Below are positions 1,402 through 14,858 of a DNA stretch of 14,858 nt, one piece after another. The notes under the pieces were generated by a model, which saw only the letters and a list, made by a program, of their open reading frames with translations, was not told the origin of the DNA and searched no databases. Source of the stretch: a virus; IMG/VR virus record IMGVR_UViG_3300044492_000112, positions 1 through 14,858 of that record; one strand, written 5' to 3'. The number at the start of each line of letters is the position of its first letter. The first letter of the stretch is position 1. Position numbers and translations under genes: made by a program.

Positions 1402-1690
1402 CGAAGTCGCCCGCCGTGTCACGACGTTCGCCGCGCAGCTCGAGCATCACGGCCACCAGCCGAGCCGACAGCGCGCCCACCGTGTACCGCGACCCCTTCG
1501 GATCGGTGTGTTCGGCGTCGAGTGCGTCGGCGAGCGTGCGCCCGACCGCGATCAGCCCGTCGTCGACCGGTTCGATATGGCCGAGCGCACGCTGCGCGGC
1601 GAGCTGGCGGTCGTAACCGCGGCGAACGCGTGCCACCGCGACACCCCCCATCCCGGGCAGCGGCGGATCCGCCCGACGCGGCCGGGTCAC
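1343..1690 (-). CDS. Putative terminase small subunit (115 aa)
   Basis: Sits immediately upstream of TerL and downstream of an HNH gene, the usual HNH-TerS-TerL synteny of cos phages. GTG start at 1690. Size and helical composition fit. No diagnostic motif seen. Confidence 0.5.
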   Translation of the reverse strand: MTRPRRADPPLPGMGGVAVARVRRGYDRQLAAQRALGHIEPVDDGLIAVGRTLADALDAEHTDPKGSRYTVGALSARLVAVMLELRGERRDTAGDFGVDEELARLAAAIRDITRP

Positions 1691-1794
1691 AGTCGATCAC
1701 CGCCGAACACGATTACACGTCGCCGGGTTGGCCCGGTCGGGGAGAGAACGCGCGCATAGCGGCGGGGTACAACCTCGAGTCACGATCCAAGACG
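1691..1794. other. 104-bp non-coding gap upstream of the terminase genes; candidate cos/packaging-recognition or late-promoter region
   Basis: One of very few non-coding gaps. GC is lower than the surroundings. Contains a small hairpin CCGGG-ccaa-CCCGG on the minus strand. The call rests on position only. Confidence 0.2.
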
Positions 1795-2037
1795 TCAGAC
1801 ACCGAACCACTCGCGCGGTAGCCGTTGGCCGCTGTCGCCATCCCACGCGACGAGACAGCACGCGTCGGTCATCGCCATCACGAAATCGGCGTCAACGCCG
1901 GCGAGCTGCTCGGCGTCAGCACGCGACGACAGCCGGCGCTCGAGCACCAGCACACCGGACGGCACGTCATACACGCGCAGCACGACACCGCCCGGGCACA
2001 CACCCGGCGCCAGCCACGCCGGCCCGGGCCGGATCAC
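1795..2037 (-). CDS. Hypothetical protein (80 aa)
   Basis: GTG start at 2037 is fused to the upstream stop by a GTGA overlap. The amino-acid composition is not shadow-like. Confidence 0.6.
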   Translation of the reverse strand: MIRPGPAWLAPGVCPGGVVLRVYDVPSGVLVLERRLSSRADAEQLAGVDADFVMAMTDACCLVAWDGDSGQRLPREWFGV

Positions 2038-2144
2038 GACCAGCCCTCGCGGGACTGGTGCGGGTGACGGGCGACGTCGCGGACACCGACCGCCACGAAC
2101 GCGACGGCGAGCACCAGGGCGACGACGAGCGCGGCACGTATCAC
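2034..2144 (-). CDS. 36-aa single-pass membrane peptide (VIRAALVVALVLAVAFVAVGVRDVARHPHQSREGWS)
   Basis: Not in the ORF track because it is under 60 aa. GTG at 2144 overlaps the HNH stop (GTGA). Its TGA at 2034..2036 overlaps the GTG of the next gene (GTGA). It fills the gap between the two genes exactly and has a hydrophobic core. Confidence 0.45.
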   Translation of the reverse strand: MIRAALVVALVLAVAFVAVGVRDVARHPHQSREGWS

Positions 2145-2425
2145 CGGATCACGCCCGAGCCCGGGGCGAGTCGTCGCCGAGCAGCTCGCCGGCGTTGACG
2201 GTTACCGGCCGCCGCGCCGCGGCGCAGATTGCACGGCGCACACGACGGCACCAGTTGGCAGCACTCGCCGATCGCGGTGTGTCGGTGCTCGGCCAGCGGC
2301 GGGACATGGTCAGGTGACGTTGCCACGCCGGCGCAGCCCGGTAGCCGATGCGAGCAGGCAGTCTCGCCTCGAGCGAGCAGGGACCGGGCTGCGCGGTAGG
2401 CGGGTTCGTGGTACGGATTGGACAT
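2141..2425 (-). CDS. HNH endonuclease (94 aa)
   Basis: Motif CSHRLPGC...SPDHVPPLAEHRH...LVPSCAPCNLRRG gives a Cys pair, D-H, then C..CN. Its position just upstream of the terminase genes is typical of HK97-like cos phages. Confidence 0.8.
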   Translation of the reverse strand: MSNPYHEPAYRAARSLLARGETACSHRLPGCAGVATSPDHVPPLAEHRHTAIGECCQLVPSCAPCNLRRGAAAGNRQRRRAARRRLAPGSGVIR

Positions 2426-2505
2426 GACCGAAGTTCAGGGTTGGATCCTCGTTGTCGAAGTCGGGATCGTGGCGATCGTCGCGCTGCTCGGTCGCCTGCA
2501 CTGAT

Positions 2506-2763
2506 TCACCGACGTCGCCGGCGGTAGCCGCGGATATAGGCGTTCCACCGATCGTGCGCGATCGGGTCGGCGTGACGTCGCACACTGTCGGGGTGCCAGC
2601 GGCCACGCCCTGACGGCGTCGGGATCTGGCGGCCGTTGAGTGACCGCGTGATGGCGGCCGTCGTGTACCCCGCGGCCCATAGCCGCGAGATCTCGGCGCG
2701 GGTGTCGACGGGTGGCGGCAACGGGAGCAGCTCGAGCGGGATCCGCAGTTGCTCACCGATCAC
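2506..2763 (-). CDS. HTH DNA-binding protein, resolvase/recombinase-HTH-like (85 aa)
   Basis: AEISRLWAAGYTTAAITRSLNGRQIPTPSGRGRWHPDSV resembles the HTH plus recombinase-domain signature of serine recombinases. No catalytic domain is present. GTG start at 2763. Confidence 0.5.
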   Translation of the reverse strand: MIGEQLRIPLELLPLPPPVDTRAEISRLWAAGYTTAAITRSLNGRQIPTPSGRGRWHPDSVRRHADPIAHDRWNAYIRGYRRRRR

Positions 2764-2772
2764 ACCGTGACG

Positions 2773-3012
2773 CTAGTTCGACGTGCCCGGGAGATGGACG
2801 ACATGCGAGGTTTCGCGGCGCCCGGCCTCGAGCGCGGCGCGCATCTTGCGCGCCCGGTCGTGCACGGTCGCCTGACAATCGAGACACCGCCACTTGCTCG
2901 GCGGCGCTGGCTGGCCGCAGTCGAGACAGCGGCGCCGTTCGGCGGCCTCGAGTTGGTCGGGATCCATCAGAGAGCCCTGGCACTCGCACAACGGCACCAC
3001 GACGCGGCGCAT
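2773..3012 (-). CDS. Zinc-ribbon protein (79 aa from ATG 3012)
   Basis: CEC...RCLDCGQPAPPSKWRCLDCQ gives two CxxC pairs 11 residues apart. The track ORF extends to TTG 3093. By my count third-position GC falls to about 68% in 3013..3093, against about 85-90% downstream, so I prefer ATG 3012. Confidence 0.55.
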   Translation of the reverse strand: MRRVVVPLCECQGSLMDPDQLEAAERRRCLDCGQPAPPSKWRCLDCQATVHDRARKMRAALEAGRRETSHVVHLPGTSN

Positions 3013-3104
3013 ATCGAAAAGCGTACAGACGTTCGTCGCGCTGATATCGAGCAGTTCGCACCGATGCCGCCGCGCCTTATGTACCAGATACAAGACCTAT
3101 ACGC

Positions 3105-3203
3105 GTGTCGCTGGCGCGCGGGGTCGCGTGCGTCTGGCGCGCGGGGTCCGTGCGTCTGGCGCGCGGGGCGAACACCTGTACCCGTGTCGCTGGCGCGCGG
3201 GGT
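3105..3203. repeat. Iteron-like array: four 20-bp direct repeats, GTG(T/C)(C/G)(G/T)CTGGCGCGCGGGG(T/C)
   Basis: Copies lie at 3105..3124, 3128..3147, 3150..3169 and 3184..3203, with start spacing 23, 22 and 34 bp. The outer copies are identical (GTGTCGCTGGCGCGCGGGGT). The inner copies are GTGCGTCTGGCGCGCGGGG(T/C). The array fills the intergenic gap after the wHTH gene and abuts an AT-rich stretch at 3078..3103. Confidence 0.85.
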
Positions 3204-3220
3204 TGTGGACAAGTTCGCGC

Positions 3221-3607
3221 TCAGATTTGGGCAGCGATGGCGCATTCCGGGCAGCCACAGATCGACGGGTGGAGCTGTCCCTGACTGTCCCGTCGACTGC
3301 CGGGCGGGTCGCCGATCTGGGCCGGTACGGCGGCCAGCGTGGCGCCGAGCGGGAAGCGCACGACCGATGCCAGACCGGGCCGAAACGTCACGCTGATGTA
3401 GCCACGCTCGACGAGCCGGTGAACGTTGCGGCGCATGTTGGCATCGGTCAACTTGGCCGCCCGGCACAACCATCCGCCGGTGTAGGTGTAGTGGTCGTGG
3501 GCGTTGGCGCGGATCGAGAGCGCGAGCAGTACTGCCCGGGCGCCGTGCGGTAGGTCGGGGTCGTGCTCGAGCAGATCGAGCGCGTACTTGGCGGCGGCGA
3601 TACTCAT
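3221..3607 (-). CDS. Winged-helix DNA-binding protein (128 aa); candidate iteron-binding initiator or repressor
   Basis: LCRAAKLTDANMRRNVHRLVERGYISVTF looks like a wHTH recognition helix plus wing. C-terminal CGCPEC motif. Strong SD (AAAGGGGAG) lies before ATG 3607. ATGA overlap with the upstream ORF. The iterons start 18 bp downstream of its stop. Confidence 0.6.
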   Translation of the reverse strand: MSIAAAKYALDLLEHDPDLPHGARAVLLALSIRANAHDHYTYTGGWLCRAAKLTDANMRRNVHRLVERGYISVTFRPGLASVVRFPLGATLAAVPAQIGDPPGSRRDSQGQLHPSICGCPECAIAAQI

Positions 3608-3777
3608 TGCTCCCCTTTGACGTGGCGGGCCTCATGGCGCAGTTGGCGGTCGCGGGCACGCCTGACGCGGTCGTGTTCGGCTTCGAAGAACGCCCAGATG
3701 ACGACGAGCACGAACGCCAGGATGACGATCGCGATCACCAGTACTTGACCGGGTGAGAACGTCAGCGCGCCGTTCAC
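3604..3777 (-). CDS. 57-aa single-pass membrane protein (VNGALTFSPGQVLVIAIVILAFVLVVIWAFFEAEHDRVRRARDRQLRHEARHVKGEQ)
   Basis: GTG at 3777 overlaps the stop of the upstream 56-aa ORF (GTGA). Its own stop overlaps the next ATG (ATGA). The longer track ORF (3604..3939) has an Arg-rich, shadow-like N-terminus that I discard. Confidence 0.55.
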   Translation of the reverse strand: MNGALTFSPGQVLVIAIVILAFVLVVIWAFFEAEHDRVRRARDRQLRHEARHVKGEQ

Positions 3778-3944
3778 CGGCGGGCCTCGATCGACTCGCG
3801 GCGCACACCTGCCAGGTTCAGCCAATAGGCACGCTGGGCGAGATCGGCGGCGTACGCCTCGAGATCGGCGGGCGTCGTGTCGGGGTCCGACTCGAGCGCC
3901 TCGCGCCATCGGTCGATCTCGGCGAGCAGCTCTAGCCACGTCAT
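3774..3944 (-). CDS. 56-aa helical protein (MTWLELLAEIDRWREALESDPDTTPADLEAYAADLAQRAYWLNLAGVRRESIEARR)
   Basis: Not in the ORF track because it is under 60 aa. ATG 3944 overlaps the HTH gene stop (ATGA), and its TGA overlaps the next GTG (GTGA). High GC3 and a clean composition. Confidence 0.55.
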   Translation of the reverse strand: MTWLELLAEIDRWREALESDPDTTPADLEAYAADLAQRAYWLNLAGVRRESIEARR

Positions 3945-4222
3945 CCGATCAGCCCTTCGCGTGGGCTACTGCCGGCGCCACCGCGTGCGGGCTGACGTGC
4001 CTGTTCGTCAGACCATCTATTTCTGAGCCAGGCGTCAATCTCGGACGCGTACACGCGCCGTTGCGCCTTCGGGCCGGTGCCGAGCCGGTGCACCGGTAGC
4101 CCTTGCTGCGCGACGTACTTGTCGAACGTCTGCCGCGATACGCCCAGATACGCGGCCCCTTCCCGAGCCGTCATGGGGCCATCTTCTACCTGTCTGTCAA
4201 GTTTCACCTTTGTCGTTTGCAT
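3941..4222 (-). CDS. Excisionase-family (HTH_17/MerR-like) DNA-binding protein; Xis or Cro-like early regulator
   Basis: MTAREGAAYLGVSRQTFDKYVAQQGLPVHRLGTGPKAQRRVYASEIDAWL matches the excisionase-type HTH pattern. First gene of the long minus-strand operon and divergent from the recombinase. The start is ATG 4222 or ATG 4174; GC3 is low between them. Confidence 0.75.
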   Translation of the reverse strand: MQTTKVKLDRQVEDGPMTAREGAAYLGVSRQTFDKYVAQQGLPVHRLGTGPKAQRRVYASEIDAWLRNRWSDEQARQPARGGAGSSPREGLIG

Positions 4223-4257
4223 GGGTTGGCACTTTAGTAGGTTCAATGCTGCATCTG
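4223..4257. promoter_or_regulatory. Low-GC divergent control region between the HTH gene and the recombinase gene
   Basis: Back-to-back TAnnnT boxes: TAAAGT on the minus strand (4236..4231), 8 nt before ATG 4222, and TAGGTT on the plus strand (4238..4243) with TTTGCA (4216..4221) 16 bp upstream. Hexamers were read by eye only. If TAGGTT is real, the recombinase starts at ATG 4258. Confidence 0.3.
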
Positions 4258-5097
4258 ATGGCAATCGGCGGCGGGTATCTGGTCGACTTCCGGGCGTCCG
4301 AACGATGGCGCGGCCTGGCCGATACGACCGTCGACAAACGCGTGAACATCGTCAGGCGATGGGCGGCCTACGTCGGCGACCCGTTCGACCCGTCGCTGAC
4401 GTGGCGGGAAGTTGAGATGTTCATCGAGTGCTCGAGCATGCGCGCAGCGAAATCGCGGTACGCGGCGGCGTCACATCTGGCGCAGTTCTACCGATGGGCG
4501 CAACGCGCCGGGCTCGCCGGGCACGATCCGACCGCGTTGGTCGTGCGGCCACGCCTGCGCCCCGATCTGCCACGCCCGGCGAACGACACCGATCTCGCCC
4601 TCGCGCTGGCGGTCGCGGTCGGCCCGATGCGCGCCGCGATCGTGCTCGCCTCGAGCTGCGGTCTGCGGTGCGTCGAGCTGGCCCGGCTGCGGTGGCGCGA
4701 CGTCGGGCTCGACTCGATCCGCGTGCACGGCAAAGGCGATCGCCACCGCGTGCTCCCGATCTCGATCGACGTGCGCGACGCGCTCGACGAGCTGGACCGG
4801 GTCGACGACTACGTGTTGCCGTGGCGCGAGTCGTCCGACATCTCGCCCGGGCGGCGTGTCTCGCACGCGGTCAACGGGTTCTTTCGAGAGTTGGGCAGCG
4901 ACGTGACCGCGCACCAGTTGCGGCATTGGTGCGGCACCCGGGCCTACGCCGCGACCGGCGACCTGCGCGCGGTACAGGGATATCTGGGGCACGCGTCGCC
5001 GGCGACAACGGCGATCTACGCCGCGCTCGATCCCGAGCGCCTGCGCGCGGTGGCGAATGCGATCGTGCTCCCGATCGGCCAGCCCGTCGCCGCGTAG
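4246..5097 (+). CDS. int: Tyrosine recombinase/integrase, compact XerC/D-like (about 280 aa)
   Basis: GLRCVELARLRWRDV (Arg I), HQLRHW (H-x-x-R) and GHASPATTAIYAAL (catalytic Tyr). A core-binding SAM-like N-domain is present, with no obvious arm-binding domain. Alternative starts are TTG 4210 (low GC3) and ATG 4258. Confidence 0.9.
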   Translation: MLHLMAIGGGYLVDFRASERWRGLADTTVDKRVNIVRRWAAYVGDPFDPSLTWREVEMFIECSSMRAAKSRYAAASHLAQFYRWAQRAGLAGHDPTALVVRPRLRPDLPRPANDTDLALALAVAVGPMRAAIVLASSCGLRCVELARLRWRDVGLDSIRVHGKGDRHRVLPISIDVRDALDELDRVDDYVLPWRESSDISPGRRVSHAVNGFFRELGSDVTAHQLRHWCGTRAYAATGDLRAVQGYLGHASPATTAIYAALDPERLRAVANAIVLPIGQPVAA

Positions 5098-5212
5098 GTA
5101 ACAAACCTGTAGCGGCGCTACACGATTGTTGCCATTCAGGGGTTGGCTAGAAATTGTTGCTTCTAGCCCGCCCGGGTGAGCCGCCGCGATGACAGCGTGA
5201 TCGGGGTCGCGG
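5098..5212. other. Low-GC convergent intergenic region; candidate attP or recombinase target
   Basis: Lies adjacent to the 3' end of int. Contains a 13-bp perfect palindrome GTAGCG-g-CGCTAC (5109..5121), two ATTGTTGC direct repeats (5125..5132 and 5153..5160) and a hairpin (5145..5168). Confidence 0.3.
5145..5168. terminator. Hairpin GGCTAGAA-attgttgc-TTCTAGCC between convergent genes; possible bidirectional terminator
   Basis: Perfect 8-bp stem with an 8-nt loop, lying between the int stop (5097) and the holin-like gene stop (5213). No U-tract on either side. Confidence 0.35.
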
Positions 5213-5359
5213 TCACTGATCGCGGTCGCGCCATTTTCGGCGCGGGTCGAACGTGTTCAACACGGCACGCATGACGCGGATCGCGGCGAACGTGCCGAGC
5301 GTGGCGCCCAGCATGAACGCGCCGGCGACGGTCAGGTTCGCCCATTCGGTCGCGGTCAC
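5213..5359 (-). CDS. 48-aa holin-like membrane protein (MTATEWANLTVAGAFMLGATLGTFAAIRVMRAVLNTFDPRRKWRDRDQ, GTG start)
   Basis: Not in the ORF track because it is under 60 aa. GTG 5359 overlaps the endolysin stop (GTGA). One hydrophobic helix followed by a basic tail. Last gene of the operon, directly after the lysin. Confidence 0.55.
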   Translation of the reverse strand: MTATEWANLTVAGAFMLGATLGTFAAIRVMRAVLNTFDPRRKWRDRDQ

Positions 5360-6243
5360 TCACGCCCGAGCGCGTCGATCATGTTGCCGCCGACCGTCAC
5401 CACGTCGCCCCAGCCCGACACGGTGTCGCCATTGACGTTCACGAATCTGAGCGCGCCGTTCTTGCCGAGCACGACGAGATTGGCGAACACGTCGGCGGTC
5501 GGGTTGTAGCGCGTGATGCCGTCACCGGTCCACGCGGTGCCGTTTTCGTCGAGTGCCACGATCATGGTCTGATCCTCCAATGTCGGCGGCGGCGCCGGCG
5601 TACCGGGATGGGTTGGCGGCGGTAGCGGGGCGCCGGCACGCTCGAGCAGCTCGGCGCGCAGATCGGCGAGCGACCACGATCCGGAACTGTTCACCGCGGC
5701 CGGCCGCCATCCGCCGGTGACGGCGGCCGCGGTCGCCGGGTCGATCTTGCGGTCGGGCGCCCAGTCGTGATGTTGGGCGACGTCGCCCGCCGCCAGCTCG
5801 AGCCCGGCGGCGATCGCCAGGCTGGCCGCAAACACGGCGTCGATCTGTGCGGCGGGGTAGGGCTCGCCGGTGCCGGCGTTGCAGATCTCGATCCCGACCG
5901 CGTGGGTGTTCATCTGATCGTCGGGCACCGTGCCCCGGCTGAAGCTGAGCCGGTCGCCTTTGCCGTTGGTGTTCGTCGCGCCGGCCGCGATCAGCCACAC
6001 GACACCATCGCGGGCCACCAGCAGATTGCAGATCGGGGCGTCGGGATCACCTTGCGCGCAGTAGGCGGCATCGTCGCCCGGATCCGCTTGCGACGCGGTG
6101 TGGTGCCACATCACACACCACGGCCGGTCGCCGTCGAATCCGCCCGAGCTGCGGGCGCGGGTCTGCCAGCCCTCCCATTCGACGACGGCCAGCCCGGCGC
6201 CGCGCAGCCAGCCGGCCAGCTCGGTCAGGTAGCGGCCGGTCAC
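5356..6243 (-). CDS. Endolysin: N-acetylmuramoyl-L-alanine amidase (Amidase_2/PGRP-like), Pro-rich linker, C-terminal putative wall-binding domain (295 aa)
   Basis: WCVMWHHTAS, HAVGIEICNAG and AQHHDWAPDRKIDP fit the Zn-amidase pattern. Linker is PLPPPTHPGTPAPPPT. GTG 6243 overlaps the upstream stop (GTGA). The 74-aa Arg/Pro-rich extension in the track ORF is rejected. Confidence 0.85.
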   Translation of the reverse strand: MTGRYLTELAGWLRGAGLAVVEWEGWQTRARSSGGFDGDRPWCVMWHHTASQADPGDDAAYCAQGDPDAPICNLLVARDGVVWLIAAGATNTNGKGDRLSFSRGTVPDDQMNTHAVGIEICNAGTGEPYPAAQIDAVFAASLAIAAGLELAAGDVAQHHDWAPDRKIDPATAAAVTGGWRPAAVNSSGSWSLADLRAELLERAGAPLPPPTHPGTPAPPPTLEDQTMIVALDENGTAWTGDGITRYNPTADVFANLVVLGKNGALRFVNVNGDTVSGWGDVVTVGGNMIDALGRE

Positions 6244-6494
6244 ACGCGGGACCGGACGTAGATCAGATCGAGCGCGGCCTGCTCGAGCCGGCGCCGGGCG
6301 CGCAGCTCGAGCGGGCGGGCGACGGCGGCCGCGATCCGCGCCTCGAGCATGTCGAGCAGGTCGTCGGGCGATTCGTCGAGCGGCGGGTCGGGGCGGCCGT
6401 CGACGAGCCGGATCCGGCGGGCCAGGTTGCGGATCTGGACACCGGGCGGGTCGAGCGCATCCCACGAATCTTCGGGTTCGAAATCGAAGCTCAT
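6240..6494 (-). CDS. Hypothetical acidic protein (84 aa) between the tail and lysis genes
   Basis: ATG 6494 is in an ATGA overlap with the upstream gene, and its stop is in a GTGA overlap with the lysin. Composition is non-shadow. Confidence 0.6.
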   Translation of the reverse strand: MSFDFEPEDSWDALDPPGVQIRNLARRIRLVDGRPDPPLDESPDDLLDMLEARIAAAVARPLELRARRRLEQAALDLIYVRSRV

Positions 6495-7042
6495 GCGATC
6501 ACGGTCGCGACGAGATCGAAATCACGATTGTTGGCGGTCGCCGGCTTGAGCAGTCCGGTCGGGTCGACGTAGAACACCTTGACGGACAAGATCGTCAGCG
6601 GCGCATCGAACGACCAGGCGCACACGAACGCGTCGGGGGCGGTCTTGCGGGATCCGAGCACGACCGAGATGTACGACGTGAACCCGAGTTCGGCGGCGGT
6701 GATCGTCACGAAACCTGATGCGTCGGTCGTCTTGTTGATCAGGCGCCGCGTCGACGTCACCCATTGCGAATTGATCCGTTCGAACTGGCCGATTCCGGGC
6801 ACCGACGCATACGACCCATCAGCGGCCGCCCACGCTTTCATGGCGGCGACCGTCGCGAATCCGTGTATCACGCGCCGGGTGACGTCCTGCGACCAGGCCG
6901 ACAGGATCGCCGAACCGGGGGCGGGCACGTTGGCGAACGCGCCGATCGTGATCGGCGGATTGGCGGCCTGCGGTGACGGTGTCAGGCGTGCCTCGAGCGC
7001 GGCGACACGCTCGGCGAGCTGCTCGAGTTCAGGTGATGGCAT
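6491..7042 (-). CDS. Minor tail protein, candidate receptor-binding or fibre protein (183 aa)
   Basis: ATG 7042 shares one nt with the upstream TGA (TGATG). N-terminal coiled coil (PELEQLAERVAALEARL) followed by a beta-rich C-domain. Last structural gene. Confidence 0.5.
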   Translation of the reverse strand: MPSPELEQLAERVAALEARLTPSPQAANPPITIGAFANVPAPGSAILSAWSQDVTRRVIHGFATVAAMKAWAAADGSYASVPGIGQFERINSQWVTSTRRLINKTTDASGFVTITAAELGFTSYISVVLGSRKTAPDAFVCAWSFDAPLTILSVKVFYVDPTGLLKPATANNRDFDLVATVIA

Positions 7043-8319
7043 CAGTACCCCCAGACGGCGGCGGCCGCGGTGTCGTCCCAGACAAGCCAGGTTTCGTCCC
7101 ACGCGATCGGGCGCACATAGTCGACTGCTTTCGTGGTGGCGCACGTCATCACCCATTGACCGCCCGGTGTCACGTCATGGGCGAGCGATTGGAGCACGAC
7201 GGCGAGATCGAGCACGGCGACACCGCCCGGCGTTTTCGATTCGTGCAGGAACCGGGCACGGTCGCCGATCCGATAGTCGACCGCACGCCACAACGTGGCC
7301 TGGTGCGGGTCGAGCAGATACAGCACGAACTGATCGACCGCCAGCCGCGCCGGCGCCACGCTGACCATGAACGCGGCGAGTGTGTCGCCATCGATCTGAT
7401 AGTTCCACTGCTGATCGGTTTCGGCGATCCGGTAGGCGCCGGCCGGGCGCGGGTTGCTGGCGGTGGCGCGCAGCCCGGCGACGTTCTCGAGGATCACCGT
7501 GTCGGCGAGCCCGTCATCGTTGGTCGACAGTTGCGCGTCCCAGACCACGATCGGCGCCGTGCACACGTTGTCGGACAGCACCGGCACCGTCACCTGATCC
7601 GAACGCCCGGCCCGCCAATCGCGGGCCCGATAGAGCAGCGTGCCGTCAGCGTCGACGTACGCGATCCCGCCATCGGACGCGGCGACGATCTGCAGCTCCT
7701 CGAGCGGCGCCCGTTCCGTCACCTGACGCGACAGCCGGCAGGTGCCGGCGTCGAGCCGTGACCGGTCGGTGTAGCCGCCGGCGCCGTTGGCGATCGCCGC
7801 GATCCGCGGGCCGGCGGTCTGATCGACGACACCGGGCGTATAGCTGGCGGCGAGCTGCGCCAGATCTGAGAACGCGTCGAACGCTTCGATCTCGATCACG
7901 TCGTCGGCGAGTTCATCCCAACGCGCGATCCGGCCGTAGAACAGCCACCACGACGACGTGTCATCGGTCGCCCAGATCGCCAGGATCCGGCCCGGCCCGT
8001 AATCGGTCAGCGAGCCGTCGACGTTGTACCGCGACCACGTCCCGGCCCGGTTGTCGACTTGCACCAGTGCCCGGGCGGCGTCGAAGTTGCCGCGCGCGTC
8101 GGGGTTGCCGGCCTCGAGTATCAGCCCGGTGTAATCGCACGCCAGATCCGACCACGGTGTCGCCACGGTCGGCGTGTCGTAGGCGATCGTCGCGTCATCC
8201 CACGTCATCAGCGGGTCATCCCACGTCGGCAACGTCTGACGGGTTTCGACCGCGATCACCGGGCGCATCGGCCACGACTTCATCGACGCGAACGACGAGA
8301 TCGGGCCGTGACTGGTCAC
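7042..8319 (-). CDS. Minor tail protein (distal-tail/tail-tip-like, about 425 aa)
   Basis: Sits immediately downstream of the tape measure, the usual Dit/Tal position. GTG 8319 lies 16 nt after the TMP stop. ATG 8283 is the alternative start. The track start at 8421 overlaps the TMP. Confidence 0.6.
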   Translation of the reverse strand: MTSHGPISSFASMKSWPMRPVIAVETRQTLPTWDDPLMTWDDATIAYDTPTVATPWSDLACDYTGLILEAGNPDARGNFDAARALVQVDNRAGTWSRYNVDGSLTDYGPGRILAIWATDDTSSWWLFYGRIARWDELADDVIEIEAFDAFSDLAQLAASYTPGVVDQTAGPRIAAIANGAGGYTDRSRLDAGTCRLSRQVTERAPLEELQIVAASDGGIAYVDADGTLLYRARDWRAGRSDQVTVPVLSDNVCTAPIVVWDAQLSTNDDGLADTVILENVAGLRATASNPRPAGAYRIAETDQQWNYQIDGDTLAAFMVSVAPARLAVDQFVLYLLDPHQATLWRAVDYRIGDRARFLHESKTPGGVAVLDLAVVLQSLAHDVTPGGQWVMTCATTKAVDYVRPIAWDETWLVWDDTAAAAVWGY

Positions 8320-11580: not shown

Positions 11581-13185
11581 TTACGGCTGCGTCGTCTTTG
11601 CGAACGCGCCCGGGTATTGGATGCCGAGCGCCCCGTAGCCGTAGACGGCGATGTCGAGCCCGAGCAGACCGACGTCGATCGCCCGCAACGTGAACGGCGT
11701 GCCGGGCACGTCGTACCACGTCGCGCCTTGCTTGTGGCCGGCCAGGTAGGTGCGTGCCGCCAGCGCCGGCTCGCAGTACACGGTCAGCCCGGCCGAGTTC
11801 GTCATTTCCGGGGTCATCCGCCCGAAGCTCACGGCACCATCCCAGAACGCCGGGCCGTTCTGCTCTGTGATCCCGATCATGCCGACGAACACGTCGTAGG
11901 ACACGGCCAGGAACAGACCGCCGGGCGGTGTCGTCGCCGGCGTCAGACCGGCGAACAGCTTCTGCACGACACCGAGAAACGTGTCGCCCGCCAGCGTCGT
12001 GACCGCCGTCGCGGCGGCCAGCAGCGTCGTCACCGCGTACGCGTTCGACTTGTTGGCGTAGTCGATCCCGGCCGCCCGCACGTAGTCGTCGACGAACGAC
12101 GGCGACCCGAAATCGAGTTCTTGCTGGCTGATGTCGTTGCCGCCGGCCCACGTCTTGACCGGCACCGCTGACGGTGTGATCGCGACCGCGGTCGAGTTGA
12201 TCGCCGTTTTCTCGGTCGCTTGCAGGGCGACGGTCGGCGCTTTCGTCCACGCATTGAACGTCTTGTTGGGGTAGTCGCCGCGCTCGAGATCGCCCTGGCG
12301 CAGCACGTCGATCGTCGGTGTGCCCCAGGCGATGATGTCGATCAGCTCGGCCTGGTAGGCGGGCCGGAAGTTGGCGGCCACGTTGTCGGTGCCGACGATC
12401 GTCACGTTCGCCAGCGCGGCCTCAATCCCGCGTGCCAGCGGCCCTTGCGCGGCGAGCACGGCGTCACGCAACGCGTGATCGGCGCCGCGGCTGGCGGCGA
12501 TGATCCCGGCCAGTTGCCGCAATCCGATGTTGGCGTACCGGTCGCGGCCGTTCGTGCGGCGACCGGCGGCCCGCCCGGCCGTGACCGGCACCAACGCCGG
12601 CTGCTGGCGGGTTTCGACTTCGGGCACGTCGGGGTCGGCGGGCTCGTCGGTGTCGGGCAGTTCGGGCTGGTCGGGCTCGTCGACGTCGGGCGCGTCGGTC
12701 AAAGTCGGTGTCGCGGGCATTGTTTCTCCTTCGGGTTGAGCTGCGGCGACTTGTGTCACCACGGCACCGGCGTACGCGCCGAGCGGTAGCAGGGTGAGTT
12801 CGTTCCATTCGGCGGCGTAGACGTGCAGGCGGCCCTGCTCGTCGTAGTCGTAGCGGGTCGGGTCGGCGCCGACCGAGAACATCAGATCGCCGTCAGCGGC
12901 CAGTGTCAGGGTTTCGTCGCCGAGCGGTGTCCGGCTGATCCGCGTCGACGCGGTCATCTGGGCGCCGGTGTCGGCGGCCATCTCGACACGTCCGACGACG
13001 CGGGAACGGTCATGGTCACGCAACGCGACCGGTCGGGCGCCGGCGTCGAGCGAGCCCGGGTGGAAGATCACCGTTTCACCCGACGACACCCGGCCGGGCA
13101 CGTTCCACGGCACCGCGATCCCGCCGATCGTGCGCCCGGCGAGATCAGCCGCCGCGGCCTCGATCGCAAAGATCACGTTGGGCAT
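11581..13185 (-). CDS. Prohead (HK97/S78-type) protease fused to HK97-fold major capsid protein (534 aa)
   Basis: N-terminal part: LRDHDRSRVVGR (His), GDLMFSVGADP (Ser) and WNELTLLPLGAYAGA. Acidic Pro-rich linker: PDVDEPDQPELPDTDEPADPDVPE. C-terminal roughly 320 aa is capsid-like. ATG 13185 shares one nt with the portal TGA. Confidence 0.85.
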   Translation of the reverse strand: MPNVIFAIEAAAADLAGRTIGGIAVPWNVPGRVSSGETVIFHPGSLDAGARPVALRDHDRSRVVGRVEMAADTGAQMTASTRISRTPLGDETLTLAADGDLMFSVGADPTRYDYDEQGRLHVYAAEWNELTLLPLGAYAGAVVTQVAAAQPEGETMPATPTLTDAPDVDEPDQPELPDTDEPADPDVPEVETRQQPALVPVTAGRAAGRRTNGRDRYANIGLRQLAGIIAASRGADHALRDAVLAAQGPLARGIEAALANVTIVGTDNVAANFRPAYQAELIDIIAWGTPTIDVLRQGDLERGDYPNKTFNAWTKAPTVALQATEKTAINSTAVAITPSAVPVKTWAGGNDISQQELDFGSPSFVDDYVRAAGIDYANKSNAYAVTTLLAAATAVTTLAGDTFLGVVQKLFAGLTPATTPPGGLFLAVSYDVFVGMIGITEQNGPAFWDGAVSFGRMTPEMTNSAGLTVYCEPALAARTYLAGHKQGATWYDVPGTPFTLRAIDVGLLGLDIAVYGYGALGIQYPGAFAKTTQP

Positions 13186-14626: not shown

Positions 14627-14858
14627 CTATTTGGGCCGTGGCTGCGCGAAACCGGCCCGGGTAGGGGTGCGGGTGCGGGCGTTTCCGTCAGCGGCGCCTG
14701 AAACGGACATCGATGGCCGTCCGGGCGGTCTGGCGGCGGCCGCCGCCCACGCCGCGAGCGTGACCGCGACGAGCGGCGAGATGTCGGCACCGGATCGGCG
14801 CCGCGACCATAGCCAGGCGTCGCCCCACGTACGGCGGGCGGCGACGAGCACGGCGTCG
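14627..14858 (-). CDS. terL: Terminase large subunit, 3' end; 14732..14858 duplicates 1..127, and the unique part is 14627..14731
   Basis: The track ORF 14627..14851 begins VLVAARRTWGDAWLWSRRRSGADISPLVAV, which is the same peptide I translate from 120..1. The frame is continuous across the 1/14731 join. Confidence 0.88.
   Translation of the reverse strand, partial: DAVLVAARRTWGDAWLWSRRRSGADISPLVAVTLAAWAAAAARPPGRPSMSVSGAADGNARTRTPTRAGFAQPRPK
14732..14858. repeat. Right copy of the 127-bp terminal overlap
   Basis: Identical to 1..127. Confidence 0.97.

Follow-up and report, generated by a model that had tools for sequence, protein, structure and literature searches.

Introduction

The replication origin of phage lambda consists of four dyad-symmetric iterons of about 19–20 bp (spacing 20, 24 and 23 bp) followed by an AT-rich region; it lies inside the gene of the initiator O (299 aa), after the part encoding the N-terminal winged helix that binds the iterons, and encodes there a low-complexity linker ahead of the C-terminal domain that binds P. 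Initiation at this origin uses O and P and is not known to use DnaA there. In the iteron plasmids (pPS10, pSC101, F ori2, P1 oriR, RK2 oriV, R6K gamma) phased direct repeats of 17–22 bp (four contiguous 22-bp iterons in pPS10) are adjoined by a DnaA box and by an unwinding element, rich in AT, that carries short phased repeats; the initiator gene stands beside the origin, and host DnaA and DnaB are required. An initiator gene beside or around an origin built of iterons, a DnaA box and an AT-rich segment is a well-known architecture. The locus considered here belongs to the IMG/VR virus record IMGVR_UViG_3300044492_000112, all 14,858 nucleotides of which were analysed and are called the window below; its positions 3075–3212, directly beyond a minus-strand gene for a 128-aa winged helix-turn-helix (wHTH) protein, are proposed on sequence grounds to be quite probably the replication origin of this phage, with the 128-aa protein as its O-like initiator and probable use of host DnaA.

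Actinophage origins are in general poorly defined, and for the smallest tailed actinophages (about 14–17 kb, e.g. RRH1), in which no replication enzymes are recognisable, we know of no account of replication start. Phage initiators of the HTH_36/DnaD-like 'replisome organizer' type (PF13730, PF21984; PHROG 270, 1032, 391) typically have about 250 aa, with an N-terminal wHTH and a C-terminal domain. In the Streptomyces theta plasmids pWTY27, pFP1, pFP11 and SCP2, Rep binds adjacent non-coding direct or inverted repeats with AT-rich segments (PMC3583192). A study of actinophage origins gave no repeated motifs near phage repA genes (PMC7157519), a comparative preprint on small phages contains nothing on replication or repeats (10.1101/2022.02.05.479200), and no published description of the module set out below was found in the open-access texts searched.

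Repeat array, DnaA box and AT-rich patch

Four 20-bp direct repeats start at 3105, 3128, 3150 and 3184 (plus-strand coordinates; spacing 23, 22 and 34 bp); the outer copies read GTGTCGCTGGCGCGCGGGGT and the inner copies GTGCGTCTGGCGCGCGGGG(T/C), so that the positions, the spacing and the A-B-B-A pattern given by the sequence-only reading were all reproduced. Taken in the direction of the wHTH gene (minus strand), the repeats are iteron 1 (3184–3203; type A, ACCCCGCGCGCCAGCGACAC on the gene strand, 14-nt spacer after it), iteron 2 (3150–3169; type B, GCCCCGCGCGCCAGACGCAC), iteron 3 (3128–3147; type B, ACCCCGCGCGCCAGACGCAC) and iteron 4 (3105–3124; type A, ACCCCGCGCGCCAGCGACAC); four iterons of about 20 bp are thereby set about two helical turns apart (22–23 bp, one gap of 34 bp). 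The 13-mer CTGGCGCGCGGGG is present in four exact copies within 3111–3202 and nowhere else on either strand of the window, in line with the earlier reading, which had seen no further copy; 0.01 copies were expected by shuffling and none of 200 shuffles reached 4; with up to 2 mismatches allowed, just 3 extra scattered sites were obtained, which is chance level. Dyad symmetry is degenerate in the window units, the palindrome of unit 1 included.

The array starts 17–18 bp beyond the stop codon of the 128-aa gene (3221–3223, minus strand), and the order on the gene strand is stop codon, 9 nt, TTGTCCACA, then A-CCCCGCGCGCCAGCGACAC. The 9-mer TTGTCCACA (3204–3212, minus strand) abuts iteron 1 and was overlooked in the earlier reading; it is the window's sole site within 1 mismatch on either strand, and about 0.03 exact copies per genome are expected by chance (estimate from base composition). 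Mycobacterium tuberculosis and Streptomyces coelicolor have the identical 9-mer as their high-affinity DnaA box (PMC4285127, Table 1). A DnaA site, as predicted by sequence, thus adjoins the iterons in the manner of the iteron plasmids.

On the other side, the last iteron is directly flanked, as in lambda, by an AT-rich patch and putative DNA-unwinding element (3075–3104, minus strand; GTATAGGTCTT GTATCTGGTAC ATAAGG on the gene strand). The segment 3077–3102 is the lowest-GC 26-mer (35%) and 3075–3104 the least stable 30-mer (−36.7 kcal/mol; mean −48.3, sd 3.1, i.e. about 3.7 sd off) of the whole genome; what had been noted as the AT-richest local segment beside the repeats is therefore the extreme of the entire sequence. 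GTAT/ATAC motifs are phased 11 bp apart in it. Two other details of the sequence-only reading fared less well: that the repeats fill the largest non-coding stretch is doubtful, the gap at 1691–2140 being up to 450 bp long with at least about 170 bp free of coding signal; and the ATATCGA pair at 3011 and 3044 does exist, but its copy at 3011 runs into the start codon of the following gene, and relatives do not conserve the motif.

The module in related loci

DNA of 12 further lineages was available (L001/L002, L003, L004, L005, L009, L010, L011, L012, L013, L015, L016, L018), L018 (IMG/VR) having been recovered purely by DNA pattern, i.e. box plus unit spacing. Searches for related loci by protein or alignment gave nothing in IMG/VR or in species-representative genomes, and in metagenomes just the already-known JGI contig; the DNA-pattern scan of genome contigs gave no match, and no meaningful match to the 128-aa protein came from tblastn searches of phages and plasmids.

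The order box, units of about 22 bp (intervals about 34/22/22), AT patch recurs in 12 of 12 lineages (in L015 without the box); the iteron array, on whose presence in relatives the earlier proposal had been made to depend, is found in every lineage recovered. There are four units per lineage (five in L018), each beginning with (A)CCC(C)G, with start-to-start spacing of 33–35, then 21–24, then 21–23 bp; the first interval of 33–35 bp is kept in all complete or near-complete arrays except that of L013 (45 bp). Just the first one to three units are seen in L001/L002, L009 and L010, where the contig breaks off within the array. Nine lineages have sequence past the last unit, and there a patch of low GC (0.47–0.59; locus 0.67–0.73) follows it, in which a short motif recurs two or three times at intervals of about 11 bp: GTATC in the window, L003 and L005, GATACC in L015, GTAC in L012 and AAGTAC, three times, in L018.

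A 9-mer with no more than one mismatch to TT[G/A]TCCACA stands at the equivalent position in 11 of the 12 related lineages: TTGTCCACA itself in the window and four lineages, TTATCCACA in L003, and a version with one mismatch in L001, L010, L011, L012 and L018; L013 has a box with two mismatches and a second copy with one.

Unit sequences vary among lineages and are homogenised within each. In most lineages the unit is a clear palindrome (dyad clear in L003, L010, L013, L015 and L018), e.g. CGCGCCTCAGGCGCG in L018, GGTCGC-YR-GCGACC in L003 and GCGCACCGGTGCGC in L011 and L015; unit 1 of the relatives is the full palindrome ACCCCGCG-N-CGCGGGGT. Divergence between lineages together with homogeneity within them is as would be expected if the units were binding sites co-evolving with a DNA-binding protein that is dimeric and lineage-specific.

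Such GC-rich palindromic units past the wHTH gene might instead act as RNA (terminator, attenuator or small RNA), since in L003, L005, L010 and L001 the stop codon is directly followed by unit 1, a palindrome able to form a hairpin. Folded as RNA, however, the window array does no better than shuffles (z = −0.78), a result on which the structured-RNA reading was rejected; no terminator-like site was found, unit 1 of the window has a degenerate palindrome, and the array is intragenic in six lineages. The chance that the array is an RNA element is accordingly put very low.

The window phage carries a tyrosine integrase gene, and in a 70%-identical relative (L001, 9028–9505; L002, 928–1405) there is no integrase between the endolysin gene and the HTH_17 gene; the presence of the integrase varies within the phage group. 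A reading of the repeats as attP arm sites was rejected, the integrase-less L001 and L002 retaining the module.

Position of the module relative to the gene

In the window and the six related lineages with a short protein (126–131 aa; L004, L005, L001, L003, L009, L010) the module begins 4–12 nt past the stop codon. In the six with a longer protein (164–195 aa; L011, L012, L013, L015, L016, L018) the whole module is intragenic; it follows directly on the winged helix and encodes a low-complexity linker ('..LSTPRA..PRA..') ahead of the C-terminal Cys motif, the conserved 'LST' being the box read as codons, TTG TCC ACA. Unit offsets from the gene start, modulo 3, are 1, 0, 1, 2 in L012 and 1, 2, 0, 1 in L011: with a 22-bp period successive units fall in different frames, so the repeat is maintained as DNA and not as peptide, and the peptide-repeat reading of the intragenic arrays was rejected on this account. 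The view of the short protein as a truncated longer gene was likewise discarded, the short form having its own conserved HP-x-I-C-x-C-P-x-C tail before the stop.

The 128-aa protein

In the AlphaFold2 model (five-sequence alignment) the window protein has a single wHTH at residues 1–86 (pLDDT about 80 across them, with values of about 76–92) and a disordered C-terminal tail that carries the HP-x-I-C-x-C-P-x-C motif. Just four close homologs were found among 5.8 billion clustered proteins; an exhaustive profile search gave 71 proteins at E ≤ 0.001, nearly all remote, and the family of 75 members used below comprises the query, the four close homologs and remote ones. Pfam matches over these members were HTH_36 (45/75), RP-C, the N-terminal domain of replication protein C (18/75), and DnaD_N (3/75); PHROG matches were phrog_270 'replication initiation protein' (44/75) and phrog_391 'replication initiation O-like' (42/75). 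The named PHROG matches in the family tally are all replication initiators, a primosomal protein or a DnaD-like loader; a 'transcriptional regulator' family was matched by 5/75.

The connection extends to the nearest relatives. P0005 (50% identical, of equal length and with the Cys tail shared) matches phrog_270 at 7.8e-8 and phrog_391 at 2.6e-6; P0004 (59% identity) and P0003 (70% identity) match phrog_270 at 1e-3 and 3e-3, respectively. The L018 protein matches phrog_1032 (1e-14), phrog_270 and phrog_391 at 1e-14 to 2e-11 and aligns with the close-family profile by hhalign at 96.6% probability (E 5e-10); the alignment of the short-protein with the long-protein subfamily has E 1e-40. Among predicted viral structures (BFVD) phage proteins of the HTH_36 type give the best folds (E 1e-5 to 1e-3), and some of them are annotated as 'replication protein O' or GpO N-terminal. 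The profile comparison with lambda O itself was not significant, so the window protein is tied to O through family annotation and architecture instead of through a direct homology match.

The best PDB sequence match of the close-family profile is TubR (E 0.023), which is also among the fold matches, and known centromeres are phased direct-repeat arrays beside an adaptor gene; the array might on these grounds be a partition site of centromere type that serves plasmid-prophage maintenance and binds a winged-helix adaptor resembling TubR or ParR. Yet the TubR matches are not significant; neither the window nor any related locus has a gene for a TubZ, ParA or ParM NTPase, and the adjacent TubZ GTPase gene of TubR/tubC systems is accordingly missing; the window phage has an integrase; and the DnaA box and AT patch would be left unexplained. 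A partition site is regarded as highly improbable.

Replication origin or operator

No family match to a polymerase, primase, helicase or loader was obtained among the window proteins in Pfam, PHROG and NCBIfam scans, which bears out the earlier remark that no other replication gene is present: by these comparisons the 14.7-kb genome appears to have none besides that of the 128-aa wHTH protein. The following course of initiation is proposed. Dimers of the 128-aa protein would bind the four dyad-symmetric iterons of about 20 bp, which, spaced about two helical turns apart, would lie on one face of the helix, and binding would bend or wrap the DNA; host DnaA would occupy the abutting TTGTCCACA box; initiator and DnaA together would melt the adjoining AT-rich, 11-bp-phased patch; and DnaA would recruit host DnaB helicase, then the rest of the host replisome. 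Recruitment of DnaB is assigned to DnaA in this proposal because the phage encodes no loader.

Several observations weigh against an origin at this place. The query by itself has MarR_2 as its best Pfam match (E 6e-4; 20.3 bits, gathering cut-off 27), with HTH_36 also below threshold, and no significant PHROG match; its PDB sequence and Foldseek-PDB matches are generic MarR, PerR, ArsR and TubR winged helices at E >0.01. Of the profile comparison that had been suggested for this protein, the part concerning lambda O gave no significant alignment (hhalign of the query family, E 0.25–0.41), and the link to initiator families was obtained through the PHROG matches of its relatives. L015 is without the box; 'CCACAA' is found also before a second unit in L011 and L013, and for this reason the 'DnaA box' could lie partly within the site of the initiator itself. 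Cumulative GC skew, plotted as had been proposed, has its minimum at about 2.0–2.2 kb, away from the array, and is uninformative for origin mapping here because nearly all genes are on one strand, with transcription one-directional. Dyad-symmetric sites are equally typical of repressor operators, and the support for an origin is computational throughout.

The chief competitor is accordingly an operator array, in which the wHTH protein would be a MarR-like repressor or activator, possibly the immunity repressor, and the dyads would control or roadblock transcription into the downstream operon (Cys-rich gene, HNH, terminase, structural genes). MarR_2 as the query's best Pfam match, the MarR, ArsR and PerR regulators among the PDB sequence and fold matches, the dyad symmetry of the units, typical of dimeric repressors, and the position of the array between two co-oriented genes, a possible early/late boundary, all favour it; initiators, moreover, often autoregulate, so that an operator role could coexist with an origin. 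A repressor whose repeats overlap a promoter, which the sequence-only reading had named as the finding that would shift the call, was not seen: no sigma-70-like promoter lies in or near the array (1600–4400 scanned), and the MarR_2 match remains below threshold. A conserved −10-like TACGCT and a leaderless ATG, 90–190 bp beyond the units on the downstream side, belong to the next gene; six lineages have the array in mid-gene, followed by translationally coupled genes, where a promoter is not expected; the conserved DnaA box and the phased AT patch would be left unexplained; and the PHROG matches of the family favour initiators, with 'transcriptional regulator' at 5/75. An operator array is considered unlikely. 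The preference of the earlier reading for a minimal origin bound by a wHTH initiator is supported computationally by the box, the conserved module, the intragenic relatives, the initiator families and the lack of an overlapping promoter.

The element just mentioned consists of a probable −10 TACGCT (3025–3020) and the leaderless ATG (3012–3010) of the 80-aa gene (together 3010–3025, minus strand). L004 and L005 keep the sequence TAC(G/C)CTTTTCG(A/C)(T)ATG, of the conserved form TAC(G/C)CT-N6-7-ATG, and L003 has TAAAAT-N9-ATG; this suggests a −10 element and a leaderless mRNA for the Cys-rich 80-aa gene, whose promoter would then lie about 60 bp beyond the AT patch on the downstream side. The element marks the downstream boundary of the proposed origin and is outside the origin itself.

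Comparison with known systems

With lambda the locus shares four dyad iterons of about 20 bp followed by an AT-rich region, a winged helix predicted to bind them, iteron sequences that vary among related phages, and relatives that match the O-like initiation families of PHROG; in the longer relatives (L011, L012, L013, L015, L016, L018) the array lies, as in O, inside the initiator gene after the wHTH and encodes a low-complexity linker. It differs in that the array of the window and its nearest relatives stands past the stop codon, outside the gene; in that the protein has 128 instead of 299 aa and is without the P-binding C-terminal domain of O; in that no P-like helicase loader but 80-aa Cys-rich, 85-aa and HNH genes come downstream; and in that a DnaA box is fused to the array.

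The iteron plasmids are resembled in the phased direct repeats with an adjoining DnaA box, in the AT-rich element with short phased repeats, in the initiator gene beside the origin and in the dependence on host DnaA and DnaB predicted for the window phage. Their Rep proteins, however, have two winged-helix domains (Pfam Rep_3) and bind as monomers, whereas a single wHTH and dyad units are found here, with no Rep_3 match in the query or the 75 family members, which places the protein outside the Rep_3 type; the element, too, is a tailed phage. In function the system would be closer to the iteron plasmids (Rep, DnaA box, unwinding element) than to lambda (O and P), while the dyads and the intragenic position in relatives are lambda-like.

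To the HTH_36/DnaD-like initiators the window protein is linked by its N-terminal wHTH, homologous at the level of the family; it is half their typical size, has the Cys motif in place of their C-terminal domain and falls below every family threshold. High-GC actinobacterial hosts and a rep gene with an adjoining repeat locus are points in common with the Streptomyces plasmids, whose Rep is unrelated and much larger (pWTY27 RepA has 522 aa, and a RepB primase-polymerase is present in addition) and whose repeat motifs are of 7–8 bp (PMC3583192). The system is best classed with the O-like/HTH_36 initiator-origin systems of phages, as a new and very compact member that occurs in small actinobacterial phages.

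Genome and neighbouring genes

The first and last 127 bp of the window are identical (1–127 = 14732–14858); this is an assembly overlap, so the window is a circularised complete genome with a true size of about 14,731 bp. Its GC content is about 70%. The minus strand holds nearly all genes, the sole exception being that of the tyrosine integrase (4210–5097, plus strand). In the direction of transcription the order is portal (14375–13185), protease-capsid fusion (13278–11581), connector, major tail protein, tape measure protein (9922–8336), tail proteins, endolysin (6465–5356), the integrase on the opposite strand, HTH_17 Xis-like protein (4264–3941), a small membrane protein, the 128-aa winged-helix protein and putative O-like initiator (3607–3221), the repeat region, the 80-aa Cys-rich protein (3012–2773), the 85-aa protein (2506–2763), HNH endonuclease (2425–2141), a TerS candidate (1690–1343) and TerL, which spans the assembly junction. 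Whole-window megablast against phages gave zero matches and the NCBIfam scan of the window proteins nothing useful; the capsid fusion protein is about 26–28% identical to those of small actinophages of Arthrobacter, Gordonia, Curtobacterium and Rhodococcus, a distant relationship, and the synteny agrees with Rhodococcus phage RRH1 (14,270 bp). In L011 the related prophage occupies 3345–7358 of a 25-kb contig, beside a class-II-type ribonucleotide reductase gene with an intein and a LAGLIDADG domain; the phage group thus occurs integrated in a cellular, presumably actinobacterial, chromosome. In L018 (2158–3891) HNH and large terminase, separate genes in the window, are apparently fused in a single 577-aa ORF.

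The physical ends of RRH1 fall between its HNH and TerS genes, which corresponds to 1691–2140 here, and by this analogy 1691–2140 is likely the cos region. This gap from the HNH stop to the TerS start (up to 450 bp) has a very strong A-over-T skew on the plus strand (AT skew ≤0.46), and GC3 is flat across 1700–1860; a 35-nt inverted repeat (1890–1924/2166–2200, 89% complementary) brackets the end of the HNH gene.

These ends bear on a further reading of the repeat array, as a pac or cosB-like packaging site, with the wHTH protein in a TerS-like or accessory packaging role. There are precedents in lambda Nu1, which has its R sites, and in pac sites located inside terS genes; TerS proteins work with repeated sites and HTH or wHTH domains; the array gene of L011, L012 and L018 lies about 1 kb upstream of the terminase genes; and the contigs of L001, L002, L009 and L010 end inside the array. 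Contig breaks are, however, expected at 22-bp tandem repeats in k=31 assemblies, and the RRH1 ends do not correspond to the array. A separate TerS candidate (phrog_15169, 3.4e-6) adjoins TerL, directly upstream of it; TerS is absent from the top PHROG matches of the wHTH family; the L015 homolog gene adjoins an ERF recombinase gene and a WhiB gene, with no terminase gene nearby; and a DnaA box has no packaging role. The protein thus does not group with TerS proteins and their pac or cosB sites, and packaging is judged quite improbable as the role of the array.

The two genes downstream of the proposed origin are conserved. The 80-aa protein (2773–3012) has CxC...CxxC...CxxC motifs and a weak DksA-like zinc-finger PHROG match (8e-4), the 85-aa protein (2506–2763) a weak match to the serine-recombinase 'Recombinase' domain; both could be accessory replication or regulatory factors. 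The segments 4181–4259 and 5099–5166, which flank the integrase gene, are among the lowest in GC of the genome (40–43%) and are candidate divergent int/xis promoters and attP; no attP core was identified. Within the protease-capsid fusion gene a 33-bp tandem repeat (2.6 copies, nested 9-bp period; 12614–12698) encodes an acidic proline-rich linker (PDVDEPDQPELPDTDEPADPDVPE) that joins the protease and capsid parts.

Conclusion

What is offered is a concrete, testable candidate: an origin of 140 bp and an initiator of 128 aa, with predicted dependence on host DnaA. The family-wide signature (box, units at 34/22/22, phased AT patch) is usable to find origins in related phages and prophages, and the occurrence of the same origin in and out of the initiator coding sequence bears on why the lambda origin sits in gene O. 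Should the fragment prove capable of autonomous replication, vectors for high-GC Gram-positive hosts would gain a very small replicon. A more far-reaching proposal is held tentatively and with less than even confidence: that the 128-aa protein and about 140 bp of DNA (DnaA box, four iterons, phased patch) form the complete replication system of a tailed double-stranded DNA phage, that DnaA recruits the helicase in place of a phage loader, and that the origin has moved between coding linker and post-stop DNA within the family. If this were true, the system would be among the most compact self-specified replicons of tailed phages and a ready minimal replicon for high-GC actinobacteria.

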